Shown piece by piece: positions 2,062-63,679 of a stretch of 64,000 nucleotides of DNA. The DNA comes from Escherichia phage PSD2002, in sequence record OK335775.1. The stretch is one strand, 5' to 3'. Below the pieces are notes generated by a model that searched no databases, was not told the origin of the DNA, and was given only the letters and a program-made list of their open reading frames with translations. Every line of letters starts with the position of its first letter. Position 1 is the stretch's first letter. Both the position numbers and the translations under genes were made by a program.

Positions 2062-5000
2062 TAATTTTTACCTGAGTTGGAACTTTAGGGTCTCTAGGAT
2101 TTCCAATACCGTCTTTAAGACGCTTATCAACCAGTGCACGCCAATTGGCAAAGGTCACCACACTTTGGTCAAACAATGGACTATGCTTTTTAATACGTTC
2201 GTGTGGTAATTGACCTTGGAATACAGAGAAATCATTTTCTGCATCATAATCGGCAGGAATATCAAACGGTTCTCCTGCTTTAGGTCCTACGTTGTACGTT
2301 GGAGCACCTGTACGAGGGTCTCGTTCTATATTACCATCAAAACCTATTACAGCAACTCTATCATACCATTCAGATGGCAAACCTGAGTCCCATTTATAGT
2401 TCTTAAGGATATTAATAATAGTTTCTGTATGTTTTAGCGTTAAACCTACGTTAACAAACATAGAAAGCAAAGTTATACCTACAAAGCCGAAACCTACTGG
2501 ATGAACAAATCTCAAAACATCGTTGCGGTAACGAGAGGTAGGGAGATTAGACTTAATAGTCATAACATAATAAGAACGGTTACGGTTGATATAGTCGATA
2601 TTGTTACTCAAAAGCTCTTTACCACGTACACCCCGAACAATCATACCCTTGAACGAAGTACGTTCAGATTTAATTTCCTGACCGACTATAAAACGACCTA
2701 AAAGGTTATGAATGGTTAAACGCCATTGCAGTTTACCTTGTTTATAGTTACGTTCAATATAAGTAACATTACTACGTCCTGTAGGAGTATAAATGGTTTG
2801 GCCGACAATATCTTCACTGATATTATCAGATTCTACGATGATATCATATTCGATAGAGTTCTTGGACTCGATATCAATTTCGACATCTTCGTTGTAAAGC
2901 AATTTAAACAGGAATTTATATGAAGCTTCGGTACCTTTAGTAGACCAAAAATCGCTTTGGCGCGCCTGGAAAAAACGAACAACTTCATCGCGTTTTTCCT
3001 TCGACAAATAGATATTACGCTTATAGATTTCTGACCACAAATATTCCCATGAATCTTCTTCACGTGGGTATTGGTTACGAATAAGATTCAACAAATTATT
3101 ATAGTGTGTACCAGAACCATCACTAATAAATTGGAGATAGTATTCACAGAATTTTTCAAAGTTAGAATCTTGAAGCAAATAACTATCTGGAATCATTTTA
3201 ACCAGTAAAGGCTGGAGGTCTGGGTCCTGCTCACCAACTTCCTCTTTAGGTTTCCATGGGATTTCATGTTCTTGGTTTTGCAATTCTGCCGTAAACATAA
3301 TTTCTTTAGGCTTCCAAATAACACGGACTTCATCACGCACGCGATAGTCAAATTCAAAATATCCAACCAATTCGCCTGTAGATTTGTGAATCATCATTCC
3401 GGAAGAATATTTCTTAAAGCCATTAAACTCTATATTAGGAGATGTGACTTTACAAAAACCTTTATTCCAAATCTCATGAACAATACGTTCAGGTGAAGAA
3501 CCACTGTTCAGGTCGATAATTTTCTGGTATAAAGCATCATTATAAACAACCATCGCATGGTCGCCAGTAGTAATCCATGAACGGGTTCCATCACGACGAG
3601 ACCAACTAAAGAATGGTTCGGCATAATAAGCCATACGCCCAGGTTTAAATTCTTTGAAATCGGATTTAGAGTTAGACCTAAAACTCATCATCAAATAATG
3701 TTTATCGTGAATCCATTGTTCATCTTTAACATATTTAACGGCGGAGGTGACAATTTCAGGGTATTCCAAAGGAAGCTCAGAATCAACCTCTACTTCATAT
3801 CTAAAGTTGCTTGAACTGAAAAATAATTCCTCTCCGTCGGTAGACATGCTGGTATATCCATGCTCTATACGACGACGTTCTTCTTCTGTGTTTCCAAATA
3901 CACGAGTCCATGTATCAGTTGAAGTGTCTAACCAATAAACACCTTTGGATTCAGAATCAACCACATTGGATTCGACCGTAGGGTCCATTTTTTCTTCTTT
4001 AACTTCACCTGTAATTAAAGCAAATGTATGGCCTTGGATAGAATCTAATTTATAACAAACAGCTTTAGGGTTCCCTGTGATAGTCGAATATCCGCTTTCA
4101 AATATCTTCTCTCCATAAGTCGGAGAACTAGGGTCGGTGTCTATAGGGGCTTCAGATGTTTTTGCTTTATAAACTCTGTCTCTACCGGCAACATAAATGA
4201 ATTCATCAGATGCGCACATGGCCTCGGCAATAGTAGAAATAGGTAAAGGAAGCTTTGCATATGAACCGAATATCTCAATTTCAAATGGAAGGTCGATATC
4301 GCTACCTATTTTAGCAAAAGTTACATCTTGGGAACTAAATCTAACGTCATCAGCAGACCAACGAATATCACTTGATTTACGTCCGTAAAATATTTGGTCA
4401 TAACCTAGAACATAAGTGGTCGTGTCGGTTTGGTAGTGTACCGTACGTGAAACAGGGTTACCTACTCGGTCATTAAACAAACGGATATAATGCCAGTTCT
4501 GCCCTTTATCATTAGAAACCTTAGCGGTACTTTGGAATCTTTCTAAAAGGTAAAGTACGCCACCGAGTTCCATTAAAATAGAACGTTTAGGGTCTTTACA
4601 AACCGCTTGGATGCTTCCTTGGATTTCATGGAAACGGTCAGCTTTTAAAACATAATTTGATATAGATGACAAATGCGAATATGCAGGGGTAAAGTTAAAA
4701 TCTTCACTCATCAAAGAAGCCATAATGGCGTCAGTATTAAAGTTCACATAATTCTGATTATTTTTTGTGAATTTTTCTTCAATAAATTTATTAGACAAAG
4801 TGAATTCGCGCATATGCTCAAATGTATATGCGTTGGTAGAGAAAGTTTCAAATTCTTCAGTGTAAACCCATTCGGACTGCTCAAACCCCTGGGCGGCCAC
4901 CGCAACTCGCATTTTATAAAATGAATTAGGAGAAATGAATGCCTCTTCAAACCATTCGTTATTAGGGGTGTAACCTAAATTTCTCCAAAATAATCTATCG

Positions 5001-56374: not shown

Positions 56375-56393
56375 GGGACTTCGGTCCCTTTTT
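56375..56393 (+). terminator. UUCG hairpin with T-tract upstream of gene 43
   Basis: GGGAC-TTCG-GTCCC followed by TTTTT. Confidence 0.55.
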
Positions 56394-56451
56394 GGAGTAT
56401 AATAATTCATCAACAAACAAAAGACAATCACTCGTCTATAAAGGAAATGAA

Positions 56452-58159
56452 ATGCAAGAATTCTATTTGACAGTCGAACAAATCGGTGATAATATTCTCG
56501 AACGTTACATCGATAAAAATGGTAACGAACGTAGTCGTGAAGTTCCATACAAGCCTACAATGTTTATGCATGCTAATCCAGAGCAAGCCGTAAAATACAT
56601 TGATATCTATGGTAAGGGTTGTGTTAAGAAAGAATTCGATTCTATGCGTGATGCATCCCAATGGATGAAACGTATGGATGATATGGGTCTCGAAGCCCTG
56701 GGTATGGACGACTATAAATTAGCCTATTTGTCTGATACCTATCGTAAAGAAATCAAATATGATTCTTCTAAGATTCGTATTGCTAACTTCGACATCGAGG
56801 TAACATCTCCTGATGGATTCCCTGAACCAGCTCAGGCTAAACATCCTATCGATGCCATTACCCACTACGACTCGATTGACGATAAATTCTATGTATTCGA
56901 CCTTTTAGTTTCGCCTTATGGTACTGTTGAAGAGTGGTCGATTAAAATCGCTGAGAAACTCCAAGACGAAGGTGGTGACGAAGTTCCACAGGAAATCATT
57001 GACAAAATCGTTTATCTTCCGTTTAATTCTGAAGAAGAAATGATGCTTGAGTACTTGAATTTCTGGCAACAGAAAACTCCTGTGATTTTGACTGGATGGA
57101 ACGTTGAGTCGTTTGACGTACCGTACGTTTATAACCGTCTGAAAAATCTGTTCGGTGAGAACACTGCTAAGCGATTAAGCCCACATCGTAAAACTCGCGT
57201 TAAAGTTATTGAGAACATGTACGGTGCTCGTGAAATCATTACATTGTTCGGTATCTCTGTTCTGGATTATATCGACCTTTATAAAAAATTCAGCTTCACC
57301 AACCAGCCTTCTTATTCTCTGGATTATGTTTCTGAATATGAATTGAAAGTGGGTAAGTTGAAATATGATGGTCCAATCTCTAAGTTACGTGAGACGAACC
57401 ACCAACGATATATTTCCTATAACATTATCGACGTATATCGTGTTGTGCAAATTGATATGAAACGCCAGTTCATTCTTCTGAGTTTGGACATGGGTTATTA
57501 TGCCAAGATGCAGATTCAGTCGGTGTTCAGTCCAATTAAGACTTGGGACGCTATTATCTTTAATAGCCTTAAAGAACAAGGCAAGGTAATTCCACAAGCT
57601 CGTTCGCACGTGGTCCAACCTTATCCTGGCGCTTTCGTTAAGGAACCGATTCCTAACGCTTACAAATACGTAATGAGTTTCGACCTTACATCTCTGTACC
57701 CGAGTATCATTCGACAAGTGAATATAAGCCCAGAGACCATCGCAGGGACATTCGCTAACGCACCGATACATGAATATATTGCTGGAACTGCTCAGCGTCC
57801 TAGCGACACCTACAGTTGCTCTCCTAACGGCATGATGTATTATAAAGACCGTGAAGGTGTGATTCCTACAGAAATCACCAAGGTATTCTTGCAGCGTAAA
57901 GAACATAAAGGTTATATGCTTGCAGCTCAACGTAATGGTGAGTTAATTAAAGAAGCATTGGAAAATCCTAATCCCTCAGTTGATAGTCCACTGGATATCG
58001 ATTATCGTTTTGACTTCTCCGACGAAATCAAAGCCCAGATTAAAGCACTGTCAGCGCCTTCTTTAAGAGAAATGTTGAAGAAAGCCGAGCTCACTGAAGT
58101 TGCAGGTAACACTGCTCAGATTAACCGTAAGTTGCTTATCAACAGCCTGTATGGTGCGT
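56452..58159 (+). CDS. 43: DNA polymerase gp43, exon 1 (N-terminal exonuclease domain and start of polymerase domain)
   Basis: Starts MQEFYLTVEQIGDNILERYIDKNGNE after AAAGGAAA; ends ...NRKLLINSLYGAL; the unspliced frame hits TAA at 58168-58170. Confidence 0.85.
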
Positions 58160-58389
58160 TAACCAAATAACTCGGCGCACTTTAAACTATGTGAATTCAG
58201 GGAACATCTCTAGTAGACAATCCTGAGCGAAGCCTCTATGAGGAACGTGCAACGACTATCCGAAAGGAGTACACCCAAGTGGGTGGAAGCGCATAGCATC
58301 GAAAGATGATGATATAGTCTGCTCTGCATGGCGACATGCAGCTGGATATAATTCCGGGCTGAGCTTAACGACCTCAGTTGAACACCGTG
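58160..58389 (+). ncRNA. putative self-splicing group I intron (ORF-less, 230 nt) in gene 43
   Basis: Exon GUGCGU pairs with intron GCGCAC (58175-58180) with U.G at the splice site; GACUA (58254) and UAGUC (58315) form a P7-like pairing; terminal G at 58389; splicing restores GAL-GNVWFRYYD. Confidence 0.65.
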
Positions 58390-59393
58390 TGGGTAACGTC
58401 TGGTTCCGCTACTATGATTTGCGTAATGCAACTGCAATCACACTGTTCGGTCAAATGGCCCTCCAATGGATTGAACGTAAGGTTAACGAATATCTGAATA
58501 GCGTGTGTAAAACTGAAAACCAGAAGTTCGTGCTCTATGGTGATACTGACTCCATTTATGTTAAGGCAGATGCAATCATCAATAAAGTAGGCGAAGATAA
58601 ATTTCGTGACACTAACCACTGGGTCGACTTCTTAGATAAATTTGCACGTGAACGTATGGAACCAGCTATTGATGCAGGCTTCCGTGAGATGTGCGAGTAT
58701 ATGAACAACAAACAGCACTTGATGTTCATGGACCGAGAAGCTATCGCAGGTCCTCCACTTGGTTCTAAAGGTCTTGGTGGATTCTGGACAGGCAAGAAAC
58801 GTTATGCACTGAACGTTTGGGACATGGAAGGTACTCGTTATGCCGAACCGCACTTGAAAATCATGGGCCTTGAAACTCAGAAATCAAGTACACCTAAAGC
58901 AGTTCAGAAAGCTCTGAAGGAATGTATCCGTCGTATGCTTCAGGAAGGCGAGGCATCTTTGCAAGAATATTTCAAACAGTTTAATAAGGAATTTAACGAA
59001 CTCAACTATGTAAGCATTGCAGCAGTATCCAGTGCTAACAACATCGAGAAATATAATGAAGGTGGATTCCCGGGTTCTAAATGTCCATACCACATCAAAG
59101 GTTGCTTAGCTTACATGCGTGCTTCTGCAGGTGATTTGACTATGCCTCGTATCGTTGATGGTGAAAAGGTATATGTACTGCCACTTAAAGAAGGCAACCC
59201 GTTTGGTGAAGCTTGTATGGCATGGCCGTCAGGTATTGAACTTCCGGTTCAGATTCGTGACCAAGTCCTCCGTTGGATGGACTACAACGTACTGTTCCAA
59301 AAGACCTTTATCAAGCCTCTGACCGGTTTTACTGAGTCTGCTAAAATCGACTACGAGAAAAAAGCAACATTATTTGATATGTTCGACTTTTAA
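58390..59393 (+). CDS. 43: DNA polymerase gp43, exon 2 (C-terminal polymerase domain)
   Basis: GNVWFRYYDLRNATAI ... YGDTDSIYV (polymerase motif C) ... SLFDMFDF; no SD upstream of the in-frame GTG. Confidence 0.85.
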
Positions 59394-59395
59394 GT

Positions 59396-59425
59396 GTTTA
59401 CATACCACAAGGAACGTGGTAGTAT
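59396..59425 (+). promoter_or_regulatory. T4-type early promoter cassette
   Basis: GTTTAC ... TGGTAGTATCCTTCCTATCAA. Confidence 0.55.
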
Positions 59426-59455: not shown

Positions 59456-59692
59456 ATGGAAGCTTTAATCGTTAGTGCTGGTGTTTTAGGATTTGGTTCT
59501 CTGGTTATTATGTTCATCGGTTACTTTTTACCATGGATTCTGGCTCTTCTACGAGGCACTCGTAGTAATGTCGGAATTTTCTTCCTAAACCTTCTGTTAG
59601 GATGGACTATGATTGGTTGGGTAGTGGCTTTAATCTGGGCTATCGTCGCTGAACGTAAATCAAATGCACAAATCATTATTGTTAAGCAATGA
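59456..59692 (+). CDS. imm: superinfection immunity membrane protein Imm-like
   Basis: 78-aa two-TM protein immediately downstream of gene 43, as imm is in T4. Confidence 0.55.
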   Translation: MEALIVSAGVLGFGSLVIMFIGYFLPWILALLRGTRSNVGIFFLNLLLGWTMIGWVVALIWAIVAERKSNAQIIIVKQ

Positions 59693-59826
59693 AAATAATT
59701 ATTTTATTTCTTATAATGACTGCCTTTACCATTTATTGGGCAGTGGCAATTCCACCAATGATTCCGACACTAATCATCGGATGGATTATTCTTATAGCAC
59801 AAATTAAGTATAACTGTTTTAATTGA
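59689..59826 (+). CDS. small membrane protein (45 aa)
   Basis: ATGA overlap with the imm stop; MKIIILFLIMTAFTIYWAVAIPPMIPTLIIGWIILIA. Confidence 0.35.
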   Translation: MKIIILFLIMTAFTIYWAVAIPPMIPTLIIGWIILIAQIKYNCFN

Positions 59827-59833
59827 GGATATT

Positions 59834-60334
59834 ATGAAAAAGTTAATTATCGCAATGAGTATGCTCCTATCAGGTTGCGCGGTCCAATATGGTGATGCAG
59901 TTTCGGCCGATGAAGTTGGTAAAGCTCGTATCGCAGCTGAACAGAAACAATTCGATGGCGAAATGAAATTCCGTGCAGGTTCTGGACTTGTGTACACCCG
60001 AGCTAATAATCAATGCGGTAATAACTGTGCAAAATATGCTCAACGAGAAATCGAATTCCAACGTGAACAAGAGTCCAAGCGTGAAGCGGTACTAGCCAAA
60101 CACCAGGCAGAAATGAAGCGTCAAGATGATTTGTACAAAAAGCAGAAACTGTATGCGATGTGCGTAAACCATATCAATCTACAGATTTCCATCCACGAGG
60201 CTCGTTATTACGAAATGCTCGAAACCGAGAGCTTCGGTAAAGCTCGTGATTATAAGAAACAAATCAATAAGCTCAAGACCAAAGCACTGGCGGCAATAGA
60301 ACAGTGTATTGAAATCGGTAAAGATAAGATTTAA
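59834..60334 (+). CDS. lipoprotein
   Basis: Signal peptide with lipobox LLSGC; charged helical mature domain. Confidence 0.55.
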   Translation: MKKLIIAMSMLLSGCAVQYGDAVSADEVGKARIAAEQKQFDGEMKFRAGSGLVYTRANNQCGNNCAKYAQREIEFQREQESKREAVLAKHQAEMKRQDDLYKKQKLYAMCVNHINLQISIHEARYYEMLETESFGKARDYKKQINKLKTKALAAIEQCIEIGKDKI

Positions 60335-60394
60335 GCAATACCAATTTATTAAAAATAGTGTATAATGTACCTACATTCACTTGAGGAACAGATA

Positions 60395-62068
60395 ATGAAA
60401 AAGGTTGTTATTTTAGGCGCGGGTCTTGGCTCACGGTTGTATCCAATTACCAACGAAATCCCGAAGGTACTGGTTAACTACAAACAACATACTGTATTAA
60501 AACATTTGTATGATTTGTATAGTAACCAATCAGATGAAATTATTCTGGTTATTCACAGCAAATTTAACGACCTCGTTAAAGGCTATATTAAATCCATTAA
60601 CATGATTAATAGTGATAAGCCTAAATTCACTATTCGTAACGTAGATGTGGCCAATGGTTCTGCTCATGCTATTGATTGCATTGCTGAAGATATCATTGGG
60701 CACAACGTCTTGTTTAACTGGTGTGATATTATTCCTGAAGGGCATAAAGTTGAGTGGGATAACGACTACTGTTATACCTATGGGACTGACTGTCGTTTTA
60801 CATTTGAAGAGCCATACTTGCGCGAAATTGGCACAGGTGGTGGTGTAGTTGGTTTGTATCAGGTTGCTAATTGGGCAGGTTTCAACCGTTCTAATTATGG
60901 CGAAGACCTGGCCGACAACCTGGATTCGATGGTCCATTTGACCGAACGTAAGCTGGACTTTGTGGTTGATGTCGGTGACAAATTGAAACTGGCTAAGGCC
61001 CATGAAGATTCTGAAATTAACCGTGAATTTAATAAATTAGAGTTCACTGAGAATCTGGCTATTAAAGTACCAACTAACGAATTGGGTAAAGAAATCCAAT
61101 CTAAAGAAATCAATTGGTATAATTCTATTGATTCTGAATTTGTTCCGAGCATTGTAGACTTTGCTCCAGGTGAATTCATTAAAATGGAACGTATCTTTGG
61201 TCGTACCATGGCAGATGCCTACCGGTTTATGGCTAAAGAAACTAAAGTCCTCATGGTTTATAAGGTCATTAGTGCATTACGTTCATTCGGTGGAACTATT
61301 GATAACCCATCTGATGAGCAATGGTATTCTGATGTTAAGAAAGAAGTACTAGATAAGGTCCTTATTCGTAATGCATCAATTTCTGGTCTGATTGAAGGCT
61401 TTGCTCCACAAGGTATTACCCATGTTAACGACTTCAAGGTAGGCGACCCTGAAAAACTTCTTCGCCATGCACTAGAAATTCTGTCTGAACATAAAGAACC
61501 GTACCAACTTATTCATGGTGACCCGCACTACAGTAATATTATGCTGTCGGACGAAGGTGATATTAAAATCATCGACCCACGTGGTTATTTTGGTAATAGT
61601 TCTAAAGGCCCTGCGATTTATGATGAAGCTAAGGTGCTTTATTCTATCGATGGTTATGACAAATTTAACTCCGACCCTCTATGGGGTGGCTTAACTCGTA
61701 ACGGAACTCGAGTATTCGTTGATATTGAAAAGGTTATGCCTTTAGATGATATTCCAATGTGTACATTTAAGCACAAGCTCTGGATTGCCGTTATCTGGAT
61801 GGCATTAGCAGGTTACTTTAAGAATAATCCTCTGAAAGCTCTAGGTGCTTATTACAACGGTCTATACCAACTGAGTGTGCTGCTGAAGCGGCATCCTCGT
61901 AAGCGTAAGCTTATTACAGGTGAATTTGTCGATGAAGTTCGTGACCCTATCACGGCTCAAATTATCACTCGTTGTCCTGATAAGTGGGTTTTGCTTGACC
62001 AGGAAACTGGTGTAAAATATAAACCTACAGGTTCTACTGAACTCCACAAACAATGGAAGAAAATTTAA
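60395..62068 (+). CDS. bifunctional sugar-1-phosphate nucleotidyltransferase / anomeric sugar kinase (APH-ChoK fold)
   Basis: N-terminal ILGAGLGSRLYPITNEIPKVLV (sugar nucleotidyltransferase G-x-G-x-R signature); C-terminal LIHGDPHYSNIML ... IKIIDPRG (aminoglycoside/choline kinase-type catalytic loop). Confidence 0.65.
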   Translation: MKKVVILGAGLGSRLYPITNEIPKVLVNYKQHTVLKHLYDLYSNQSDEIILVIHSKFNDLVKGYIKSINMINSDKPKFTIRNVDVANGSAHAIDCIAEDIIGHNVLFNWCDIIPEGHKVEWDNDYCYTYGTDCRFTFEEPYLREIGTGGGVVGLYQVANWAGFNRSNYGEDLADNLDSMVHLTERKLDFVVDVGDKLKLAKAHEDSEINREFNKLEFTENLAIKVPTNELGKEIQSKEINWYNSIDSEFVPSIVDFAPGEFIKMERIFGRTMADAYRFMAKETKVLMVYKVISALRSFGGTIDNPSDEQWYSDVKKEVLDKVLIRNASISGLIEGFAPQGITHVNDFKVGDPEKLLRHALEILSEHKEPYQLIHGDPHYSNIMLSDEGDIKIIDPRGYFGNSSKGPAIYDEAKVLYSIDGYDKFNSDPLWGGLTRNGTRVFVDIEKVMPLDDIPMCTFKHKLWIAVIWMALAGYFKNNPLKALGAYYNGLYQLSVLLKRHPRKRKLITGEFVDEVRDPITAQIITRCPDKWVLLDQETGVKYKPTGSTELHKQWKKI

Positions 62069-62451
62069 TGTCGCATCGAGTAGAAAATAAGCCCCATTTA
62101 TGTTTTGACATCGATAATACAATCACGGTTTGGAACCACGACCGTGATTATGAAAACTTTAAACCGGACACCGAAATGGTGTCCATGATTAATAAGCTTT
62201 ATGATGAAGGCCATGAGATTACATTGTTCACTGCTCGTGGTATGACTTCATGTGGCCCTGGTCGAATCTTGGTTGAAGTAGTTCCTGCATTAGTTAAGAA
62301 CCTTGAAAAGATTGGTTTGAAATACCATAATTTGCTTACACATAAGCCGAGTTATACTTTTATCATCGATGACCGAGCAATCCGTCCTGACCACTTTAAA
62401 GAAATGGTTCGTGAAGGAACTCTTGAAACCTATAAGGCATATCATCCGTGA
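62068..62451 (+). CDS. HAD-superfamily phosphatase
   Basis: Motif I LCFDIDNTIT (DxDxT); start overlaps the upstream stop (TAATG). Confidence 0.6.
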   Translation: MSHRVENKPHLCFDIDNTITVWNHDRDYENFKPDTEMVSMINKLYDEGHEITLFTARGMTSCGPGRILVEVVPALVKNLEKIGLKYHNLLTHKPSYTFIIDDRAIRPDHFKEMVREGTLETYKAYHP

Positions 62452-62984
62452 AACCAAAAATCATTATTATCGACGGCCCGGATAATTCCGGGAAGTCTGC
62501 TTTAATTGAATCACTTTTATCTGATAAGAAATATCGTCTTATCGATTTCCCTAAAAAGATTAATGGCAAATGCATTTCATTAGGGACCGATAATGACAAG
62601 GCTTTAGTCGAGACGTTGTATAAGTTTTTAGACCCTAATTTCGTTTACATCCTTGACCGTGGTTATCCAAGTAATATTGTTTACTCAGGATTCCTTCGTG
62701 GTGAAATGGACCCTTATGTGGAACTAGCAGATTGGATTGATTTCAAAAAAGAATTCAATATCATTGAGATTATTTTAACCCGTAATCCGTTGGATGAAGA
62801 CTTTGAAGATGACCTTATTAAATTAACCAAAGATGAGTTCAATCTAACTATCCGGCAATATGAAACATGTTTTGAAAACGTGTTTAAAATCTTAAATCAC
62901 GACGGCCATAATAACTTGCTTAACGTCGATATGGTAGAATTAAAACGTCTGAATGAATATATTGAAAATAAGGTGAATAAATGA
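62448..62984 (+). CDS. P-loop (deoxy)nucleotide/nucleoside kinase-like protein
   Basis: IIIIDGPDNSGKSALIESL resembles thymidylate/dNMP kinase P-loops; GTG start overlapping the upstream stop. Confidence 0.5.
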   Translation: MKPKIIIIDGPDNSGKSALIESLLSDKKYRLIDFPKKINGKCISLGTDNDKALVETLYKFLDPNFVYILDRGYPSNIVYSGFLRGEMDPYVELADWIDFKKEFNIIEIILTRNPLDEDFEDDLIKLTKDEFNLTIRQYETCFENVFKILNHDGHNNLLNVDMVELKRLNEYIENKVNK

Positions 62985-63679
62985 AACACATTACCGCTGT
63001 TAGTTTTGAAAACGCGTTTAAGCAAATGAACGAAGAAATCCTGGAAGCTCCACAGTTTGCAGTTGATTCTCGTATCGGCCGTTGTTATGAAATTGGTTCT
63101 GCTTCGGTAGAAGTACTGGATGCAAGCACCTATAAATTCACCGACCCTCGTATTAATCGTATCAACTACGATTATGCCGAATCTTTCTGGAAATTTATGA
63201 TTTCTGGTGGTACTGACGCCGCCGAAGCATTTAAGGAATACCCTAATGTTGCTAAGTTCATTGATAAGCCGAAAAGTGACGTATTGCCTGCAAACTTCAA
63301 CACTTTCTATGGACCTCGAATTGTGGCCCAACTCCCAGCCCTACTTAAAGAGCTTAAAGAGAAGCCTAACTCGCGAAGAGTTGTGTTCCAAATTCTCCAA
63401 GAACAAGACCAAGCCCTCCTTGATTCTGACGAATCCCTAGAATATCCATGTACCGATTCGGTAACATATTATATTCGTGATGGACGTCTGTACGCACATA
63501 CTCATATGCGTTCACAGAACTGTGCTATCGTTATGCAGCTGGATTTCTATCTGCAGGGTAAACTGATGGCCTTTATTGCTGAACAGTGTGGTGTTGGTCT
63601 GGGTACATATTCCCATACTATGGTTAGTGCACACGTATTTGAACGTGATTTTGACTACGTTCGAGGATTCCTGAAATGA
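62981..63679 (+). CDS. 42: dCMP hydroxymethylase-like (thymidylate synthase fold) gp42 homolog
   Basis: 232 aa; EYPCTDSVTYYIRDGRLYAHTHMRSQN resembles the catalytic-Cys region of T4 gp42 / thymidylate synthase as I recall it; position downstream of imm. Confidence 0.6.
   Translation: MKHITAVSFENAFKQMNEEILEAPQFAVDSRIGRCYEIGSASVEVLDASTYKFTDPRINRINYDYAESFWKFMISGGTDAAEAFKEYPNVAKFIDKPKSDVLPANFNTFYGPRIVAQLPALLKELKEKPNSRRVVFQILQEQDQALLDSDESLEYPCTDSVTYYIRDGRLYAHTHMRSQNCAIVMQLDFYLQGKLMAFIAEQCGVGLGTYSHTMVSAHVFERDFDYVRGFLK

Follow-up and report, generated by a model that had tools for sequence, protein, structure and literature searches.

The block downstream of gene 43 in Escherichia phage PSD2002: a Dhakavirus version of the T-even imm.1-imm module with a candidate competition lipoprotein

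Genes and promoter of the block

Three small open reading frames (ORFs) lie directly after gene 43, the DNA polymerase gene, in Escherichia phage PSD2002 (sequence record OK335775.1); the stretch analysed, referred to here as the window, is 64,000 nucleotides (nt) long, and positions are counted from its first letter. A first-pass annotation, made from the sequence of the window, had proposed that these ORFs (59456-60334) form a superinfection-exclusion cluster of an Imm-like membrane protein, a membrane peptide of 45 amino acids (aa) and a lipoprotein. All three are present on the + strand at the coordinates claimed, and none is a chance ORF, as each has profile matches and is conserved at the protein level in other genera. 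The block is confirmed to consist of known genes and to be a version of a module that T4 also carries. The window is from a Dhakavirus; the block region shares 99.1% identity with Escherichia phage WG01 and 95-99% with about 30 further phage records, nearly all of the JS98/Bp7 type. In taxonomy, WG01 and Bp7 are both placed in Dhakavirus, Tevenvirinae. In the WG01 and Bp7 records the first ORF is labelled imm and the third hypothetical.

Gene 43 has its stop at 59393, imm begins 62 nt later, and the three ORFs are tightly packed, with no terminator-like site found in a scan of the block. A consensus scan identifies a predicted early-type sigma-70 promoter at 59397-59425 on the + strand, after which come a conserved leader, CTATCAACTAC, and the ribosome-binding site of imm, GAGGA. 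The promoter elements are TTTACA and TAGTAT, set 17 nt apart, and a TG precedes the -10 element. The window, the metagenomic relative L017, VR7 and the DNA 5' of T4 imm.1 all share conserved hexamers and the leader motif and diverge in the spacer, and 59397-59425 would accordingly be expected to function as a promoter. The gene 3' of the block has an extended -10 element of its own (TGTATAAT, 60359-60366).

The first ORF (59456-59692, + strand) encodes a 78-aa inner-membrane protein, two segments of which (residues 2-33 and 39-67) are hydrophobic, and its description as an Imm-like protein with two transmembrane segments is borne out both by homology and by synteny with T4 imm. It matches Pfam PF14373 (Imm_superinfect) at 65.1 bits, against a curated cut-off of 27.9 (E=5e-18), as well as phrog_1039, "immunity to superinfection" (E=3e-32), and is 43% identical to its orthologue, T4 Imm, across the full length (E=9e-22). 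T4 Imm blocks DNA entry by superinfecting phage, and it is the sole member of the block with a known role. These matches lend good support to classing imm among the superinfection-exclusion genes. It is also nothing new, near-identical phages already carrying that annotation; the Imm of phage MX01 is 100% identical to that of PSD2002.

The second ORF (59689-59826, + strand) encodes a hydrophobic membrane peptide of the T4 Y02C family, 45 aa in length. Its ATG overlaps the TGA of imm as ATGA, and because of this overlap the coupling of the peptide to imm, which the first-pass annotation had described, is real. The peptide matches phrog_3610 (E=1.4e-21), a Pfam search with it returned noise only, and a homologue in the metagenomic locus L018 bears the precomputed Pfam label PF26865 Phage_T4_Y02C. 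Residues 1-41 form a hydrophobic stretch that a conserved Pro-rich break (PPMIP) interrupts mid-way, and a C-terminal C-(F/I)-N is invariant. It can be accepted as a membrane peptide, but the claim that it crosses the membrane once is doubtful, since the PPMIP break makes a two-helix hairpin as likely. ORFs of this kind, 45-49 aa long, are unannotated in the RefSeq records of T4 (NC_000866, L007 6228-6377, minus strand) and WG01 (L001 6390-6527), while the Bp7 record annotates one and the VR7 record names it "42.1".

The T4 record has the order gene 43 - imm.1 - imm - gene 42. T4 imm.1 encodes a protein of 125 aa (start MKIAILVIALGLAGC) that is also an outer-membrane-type lipoprotein, and between imm and gene 42 there is a 49-aa ORF whose ATG overlaps the imm stop as in the window. 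This ORF is 53% identical to the PSD2002 peptide over the C-terminal 30 residues (E=3e-13) and matches phrog_3610 (E=1e-25). Because T4 encodes imm.1, imm and the 49-aa ORF, the block belongs to the conserved T-even backbone; the cluster that had been proposed exists, but it is no lineage-specific novelty, T4 having the same three components. Judged from sequence, the Dhakavirus block is the imm.1-imm-Y02C unit with the lipoprotein gene shifted from first to last place, and we hold both this identity with the T4 module and the orthology of Imm to be highly probable.

The lipoprotein and its probable relation to T4 Imm.1

The third ORF (59834-60334, + strand, start MKKLIIAMSMLLSGC) encodes a lipoprotein of 166 aa whose full length matches phrog_1754 (E=1.1e-51). 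Its signal peptide and lipobox (MKKLIIAMSMLLSG followed by C) occupy 59834-59878, with Cys15 as the residue predicted to be lipidated. The lipobox, which the first-pass annotation had also noted, is canonical and has Ala at +2; MKK-LIIAMSMLL-SGC fits a positively charged n-region, a hydrophobic h-region and the pattern [LVI][ASTVI][GAS]C, so that lipidation is predicted. A lipobox is found in 33 of the 34 family members examined, and the residue at +2 is never Asp. Under the sorting rule of E. coli, lipoproteins with no Asp at +2 go to the outer membrane; sorting of the family to that membrane is therefore predicted, and an outer-membrane location is the one we infer for the PSD2002 protein.

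The mature protein has two parts, a conserved N-terminal part (residues 16-100, 59879-60133), delimited by conservation and by an AlphaFold2 model, and a hypervariable C-terminal helical hairpin (residues 101-166 plus the stop, 60134-60334), delimited by a drop in identity and by the model's confidence measure, the predicted local distance difference test (pLDDT). In 26 sequences compared, G49, G51, Y54, C110 and C158 are invariant and Q60-C61-G62-x-N64-C65 is nearly so. C61 and C65 are jointly lost in some lineages, and C110 and C158 are always retained; as the cysteines are present or absent in pairs, they fit two disulfides formed in an oxidising compartment, and the lipoprotein is probably a disulfide-bonded periplasmic protein. 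The AlphaFold2 model has a mean pLDDT of 80.3, rising above 90 in the C-terminal hairpin. It consists of a flexible tether, a head made of a helix (27-39) and a beta-hairpin (42-56, containing GxGxxY), the NQCGxNC motif, one 70-residue helix (62-131), and return helices (134-162) that form the distal hairpin.

The family is small and restricted to phages: when 1.84 billion representative proteins were searched with its profile, only 18 clusters (at 50% identity) were recovered, and all of its contigs with known context are T4-like. By tblastn it ranges over Dhakavirus, Gaprivervirus, Gelderlandvirus, Karamvirus, Kanagawavirus, Winklervirus and Kagamiyamavirus, along with T4-like phages of Klebsiella, Enterobacter, Pectobacterium and Erwinia. 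Searches of PADLOC, NCBIfam and PDB sequence profiles with the lipoprotein returned nothing, and a search of Pfam returned noise only. The product names that members carry in public records look like errors of annotation transfer, for a lipoprotein of 125-166 aa: T4 imm.1 carries the name "iduronate sulfatase", and Dhakavirus homologues are called "capsid and scaffold protein", "DNA endonuclease IV" or "recombination endonuclease subunit".

The relation of this family to T4 Imm.1 was assessed by profile comparisons. Full-length matches to phrog_1754 were obtained for T4 Imm.1 (5.2e-42) and for the homologues in S16 (5.3e-46), CHI14 (6.1e-35), PhAPEC2 (8.9e-29) and CkP1 (8.6e-39), and reciprocal hidden Markov model cross-matches between the lipoprotein and Imm.1 families reached 7e-8, 6e-5 and 9e-5. 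Aligned with T4 Imm.1 by hhalign, the lipoprotein gave a probability of 96% over residues 1-31 only, the signal peptide included. By BLASTP the PSD2002 lipoprotein and T4 Imm.1 are not significantly similar, the profile search of representative proteins did not reach T4 Imm.1, and tblastn with the CkP1 protein as an intermediate query linked many genera to one another, the T4 and RB69 groups not among them. We consider it probable that the PSD2002 lipoprotein is a distant relative of Imm.1, or at least its positional equivalent, lying outside the Pfam family DUF5481 (PF17578); alternatively, it may be an analogue that occupies the Imm.1 slot.

The boundary of the variable hairpin is seen most sharply against the metagenomic contig L016. 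From gene 43 through the gene after the block, L016 is 91-100% identical to the window at the DNA level, save at 60108-60338, where identity falls to 35-62% before returning to 97% past the stop codon. The swapped stretch (window 60108-60338 against L016 3275-3498) takes in roughly the final 75 codons of the lipoprotein gene. At the protein level, Imm is 100% identical between the two, the peptide 98%, and residues 16-100 of the lipoprotein 96%, with only 26% identity over residues 101-166. VR7 and L017 show a like gradient, the N-terminal part being 62% identical in VR7, and across the relatives residues 101-166 are at 26-37% identity where the N-terminal part is at 62-96%. No counterpart of the L016 variant module, and no donor of the variant C-terminal cassette of P0004, was found among 50,697 phage genomes. 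The pattern of substitution fits a distal hairpin that behaves like a specificity determinant and is exchanged as a cassette.

Gene orders and the question of exclusion

The lipoprotein gene adjoins imm in four gene orders: 43-imm-peptide-lipoprotein in Dhakavirus and Gaprivervirus, 43-lipoprotein-imm in S16 and CkP1, 43-imm.1-imm-peptide in T4, and dmd - imm.1 - imm - sp - 61.2 in the RB69-like Mosigvirus PhAPEC2 (L008 2236-3530). The lipoprotein and the peptide accompany imm in most enterobacterial T-even genera, T4 included, and of the three genes it is that for the lipoprotein which persists most. In PhAPEC2, imm.1 and imm have jointly left the gene 43 locus and stand in one contiguous block with the gene for spackle, which is the other known exclusion gene of T4 (PMC7677548).

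The explanation that we favor, and that we place a little to the probable side of even, is that the block is a T-even early envelope module which includes a lipoprotein for competition with other phages. One early promoter just 3' of gene 43 would drive three small envelope proteins. By orthology with T4 Imm, the first would stop superinfecting T-even DNA at the inner membrane, and the 45-aa peptide, a putative hydrophobic hairpin translationally coupled to Imm, may be a membrane accessory. The lipoprotein would be anchored in the inner leaflet of the outer membrane, and its conserved head would be followed by a long helix, reaching about 10 nm if fully extended, that ends in a disulfide-stapled helical hairpin, strongly variable between phages. 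The variable tip might then bind a partner that itself varies, be it part of an incoming rival phage or a protein of the host envelope, so that the lipoprotein would take part in competition between phages together with Imm and spackle, and not strictly via Imm. A link to exclusion is favored because the lipoprotein gene is adjacent to imm in four orders, because the two moved jointly to spackle, because they share a promoter, and because the hypervariable C-terminus is swapped. The parts of this explanation do not carry equal weight. Exclusion activity of the lipoprotein or of the peptide is something we infer from these associations, and a competition role for the lipoprotein, taken by itself, is a tentative proposal that falls well short of even. 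No likelier than that role is the specific suggestion that the lipoprotein in the Imm.1 slot is a third T-even competition factor, whose exchangeable hairpin would set the target rivals or the host partner. Overall, then, the Imm part of the first-pass interpretation stands, the reading as a lineage-specific cluster holds only in part, and its exclusion lipoprotein is carried forward as a hypothesis.

A number of observations weigh against this explanation. Searches of the literature found no experimental data on imm.1 or on the lipoprotein family, and those on the mechanism of Imm likewise gave no functional data; a single paper touches on the matter, speculating that imm.1 might contribute to exclusion (PMC5885020). 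Sequence and fold searches revealed no similarity to characterised exclusion lipoproteins, and a fold search of the PDB and of predicted structures gave no match outside the family beyond generic helices. The tie to T4 Imm.1 is itself a point of weakness: the PSD2002 lipoprotein does not match DUF5481 at E<=1 (T4 Imm.1 scores 239 bits and PhAPEC2 Imm.1 39.5 bits, and the S16, CkP1 and CHI14 homologues likewise have no match), a profile-profile comparison restricted to the mature sequences indicates weak homology (E=0.0014, over 15 residues), and Foldseek did not retrieve T4 Imm.1 from the viral models of BFVD. The linkage to imm is also imperfect. Serratia phage CHI14 has no detectable Imm homologue in its whole genome (171 kb), the best six-frame match having E=0.24, and yet retains both the lipoprotein and the peptide; in CIP9, PEi20, EcS1, PM2 and L030 the order is 43-lipoprotein-isomerase-peptide, with no imm at the locus. 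In the Dhakavirus-like contig L021 (IMGVR_UViG_2974741249_000001, 3755-4498) imm abuts the lipoprotein gene and the peptide gene is absent, so the peptide is dispensable in at least one natural genome. Given CHI14, the five imm-less loci and L021, the three genes are separable, and the lipoprotein, being retained in imm-less phages, cannot depend on Imm.

Since imm-less phages exist, a serious rival is that the lipoprotein and the peptide serve the envelope in a way that has nothing to do with exclusion, and lie near imm only because all of these are small early genes sharing one early promoter in the plastic gene 43-uvsX interval. Such a role might be to stabilise or remodel the infected envelope, to resist lysis from without, or to counter a host defence linked to the envelope. 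The persistence of both genes without imm in CHI14 and its relatives is what this rival would predict, as is the coupling of the peptide, in the imm-less relatives, to an arabinose-5-phosphate isomerase-type gene instead; the lack of similarity to known exclusion proteins speaks for it as well, and the 43-uvsX interval is indeed a variable region with DNA-modification genes (PMC8056088). The arrangement in Mosigvirus is harder to accommodate, because imm.1 and imm moved together to spackle, and promoter sharing at gene 43 alone is difficult to square with that joint move. Cassette-like hypervariability of the C-terminus, moreover, fits a variable opponent better than a housekeeping function. 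We consider an unrelated envelope role unlikely, though by no means to be set aside.

A narrower alternative, the mechanism to which the first-pass annotation had drawn an analogy, is that the lipoprotein, acting from within the periplasm, masks an outer-membrane receptor of the host, in the manner of T5 Llp on FhuA or of the Cor proteins of the phi80/N15 type. Masking would block adsorption of related phages and would spare progeny from binding to cell debris. In its favor, the PSD2002 protein is predicted to be an early-expressed, outer-membrane-type lipoprotein of a lytic phage, encoded beside imm, and a variable C-terminal domain could follow the type of receptor. Its predicted structure points elsewhere: the AlphaFold2 model, a 70-residue helix with a hairpin at its far end, does not have the compact form of an Llp-like domain, and no structural match above background was found in the PDB, Llp entries included if present. 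The Cor family, phrog_1119, does match, at E=0.014, but over residues 1-18, which are the signal peptide only. T-even exclusion, furthermore, acts after adsorption, which counts against masking. Taking these points together, receptor masking seems improbable.

The weakest alternative, that the lipoprotein is an outer-membrane or unimolecular spanin, can draw on its outer-membrane type, its helical content and the small membrane peptide encoded by the adjoining gene, but it is at odds with the early-type promoter and the replication-gene neighbourhood, and we give it almost no credence. It was rejected on two grounds: WG01 (99% identical) and CHI14 each have an adjacent spanin pair at the position of T4 pseT.3/pseT.2, and the lipoprotein has no C-terminal transmembrane segment, nor does its 45-aa neighbour have a periplasmic domain, which an inner-membrane spanin requires. 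A spanin-type lysis component, which the first-pass annotation had named as the outcome that would overturn its reading, is excluded by those separate pairs.

If the competition explanation is correct, it would supply a function for T4 imm.1, and perhaps also for the coupled 45-49-aa peptide, and so fill a gap in a model phage. Should the hairpin set the specificity of exclusion, that would bear on the design of phage cocktails, in which it matters which T-even phages can co-infect. The value of the present analysis lies in the comparative picture and in a concrete hypothesis, open to direct test, on T4 imm.1 and related genes.

Neighbouring genes and comparison with known systems

A 230-nt insert (58160-58389) divides gene 43 of PSD2002 into two ORFs, 56392-58170 and 58389-59393, within the conserved motif ...NSLYGAL/GN..., where the slash marks the point of insertion. 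Against the group I intron model of Rfam, RF00028, the insert scores 75.9 bits at 58139-58341 (gathering threshold 50, E=1.2e-19). Gene 43 is uninterrupted in WG01 and Bp7, at 2712 nt, and silent differences from WG01 are clustered in the exon bases beside the intron site, as expected for co-conversion during intron homing. The T4-like Escherichia phage vB_EcoM_G2285 (167 kb) carries an intron 96.9% identical to this one in its DNA polymerase gene, and no record in the phage collection has the insert joined to Dhakavirus-type exons; these two facts suggest that the intron was transferred between T-even lineages. A search of IMG/VR for an exact 26-mer of the intron core gave no match.

Directly 3' of the block, 60365-63679 holds a module of DNA-modification type. 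It comprises a 567-aa fusion of a nucleotidyltransferase and an aminoglycoside-kinase-like domain, a 132-aa HAD-like protein called "phosphoheptose isomerase" in the records of relatives, a thymidylate-kinase-like gene, and a gene resembling thymidylate synthase or dCMP hydroxymethylase. The module resembles the RB69 genes between gene 43 and uvsX for which a part in the synthesis of arabinosyl-hydroxymethylcytosine has been proposed (PMC8056088).

The block can be set beside five known systems. T5 Llp and the Cor proteins of phi80, N15 and HK022 are, like the PSD2002 protein, phage lipoproteins with a predicted or known outer-membrane location that are made during infection, which makes for a plausible analogy of function, and Llp is described, in a preprint, as a small lipoprotein of the outer-membrane inner leaflet (bioRxiv 10.64898/2026.03.26.714494). 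The PSD2002 lipoprotein differs in being larger, elongated and helical, and has no similarity to them in mature sequence or fold. It is also encoded by a T-even phage, and the receptors of T-even phages are porins and lipopolysaccharide, not FhuA.

T4 Spackle (gp61.3) is a periplasmic inhibitor of the gp5 tail lysozyme. It is soluble and not a lipoprotein, and has no sequence relation to the lipoprotein family (E=0.033 for the family profile against CHI14 sp). The points of likeness are that it is early, that it is exported to the periplasm, that it belongs to the T-even exclusion set, and that imm.1-imm stands beside sp in Mosigvirus.

The remaining comparisons are with the members of the T4 block themselves. 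T4 Imm and PSD2002 Imm share two hydrophobic segments, a conserved LPW..AL.RG..S loop and a small ORF that overlaps the stop, and both are encoded at the T-even position 3' of gene 43 behind the conserved promoter and leader, with imm.1 intervening in T4; they differ in that the lipoprotein gene is upstream of imm in T4 and downstream of the peptide in Dhakavirus. T4 Y02C, the 49-aa ORF of the imm-gene 42 interval, shares with the PSD2002 peptide the ATGA overlap, P-x-M-I-P-T and C-(F/I)-N, with no notable difference. T4 Imm.1, finally, is like the PSD2002 lipoprotein in being of outer-membrane type, in being encoded beside gene 43 and imm with the same promoter and leader, in having a mature N-terminal G-x-V-V-N-x-x-x-V-G-K, and in having four (or two) cysteines.

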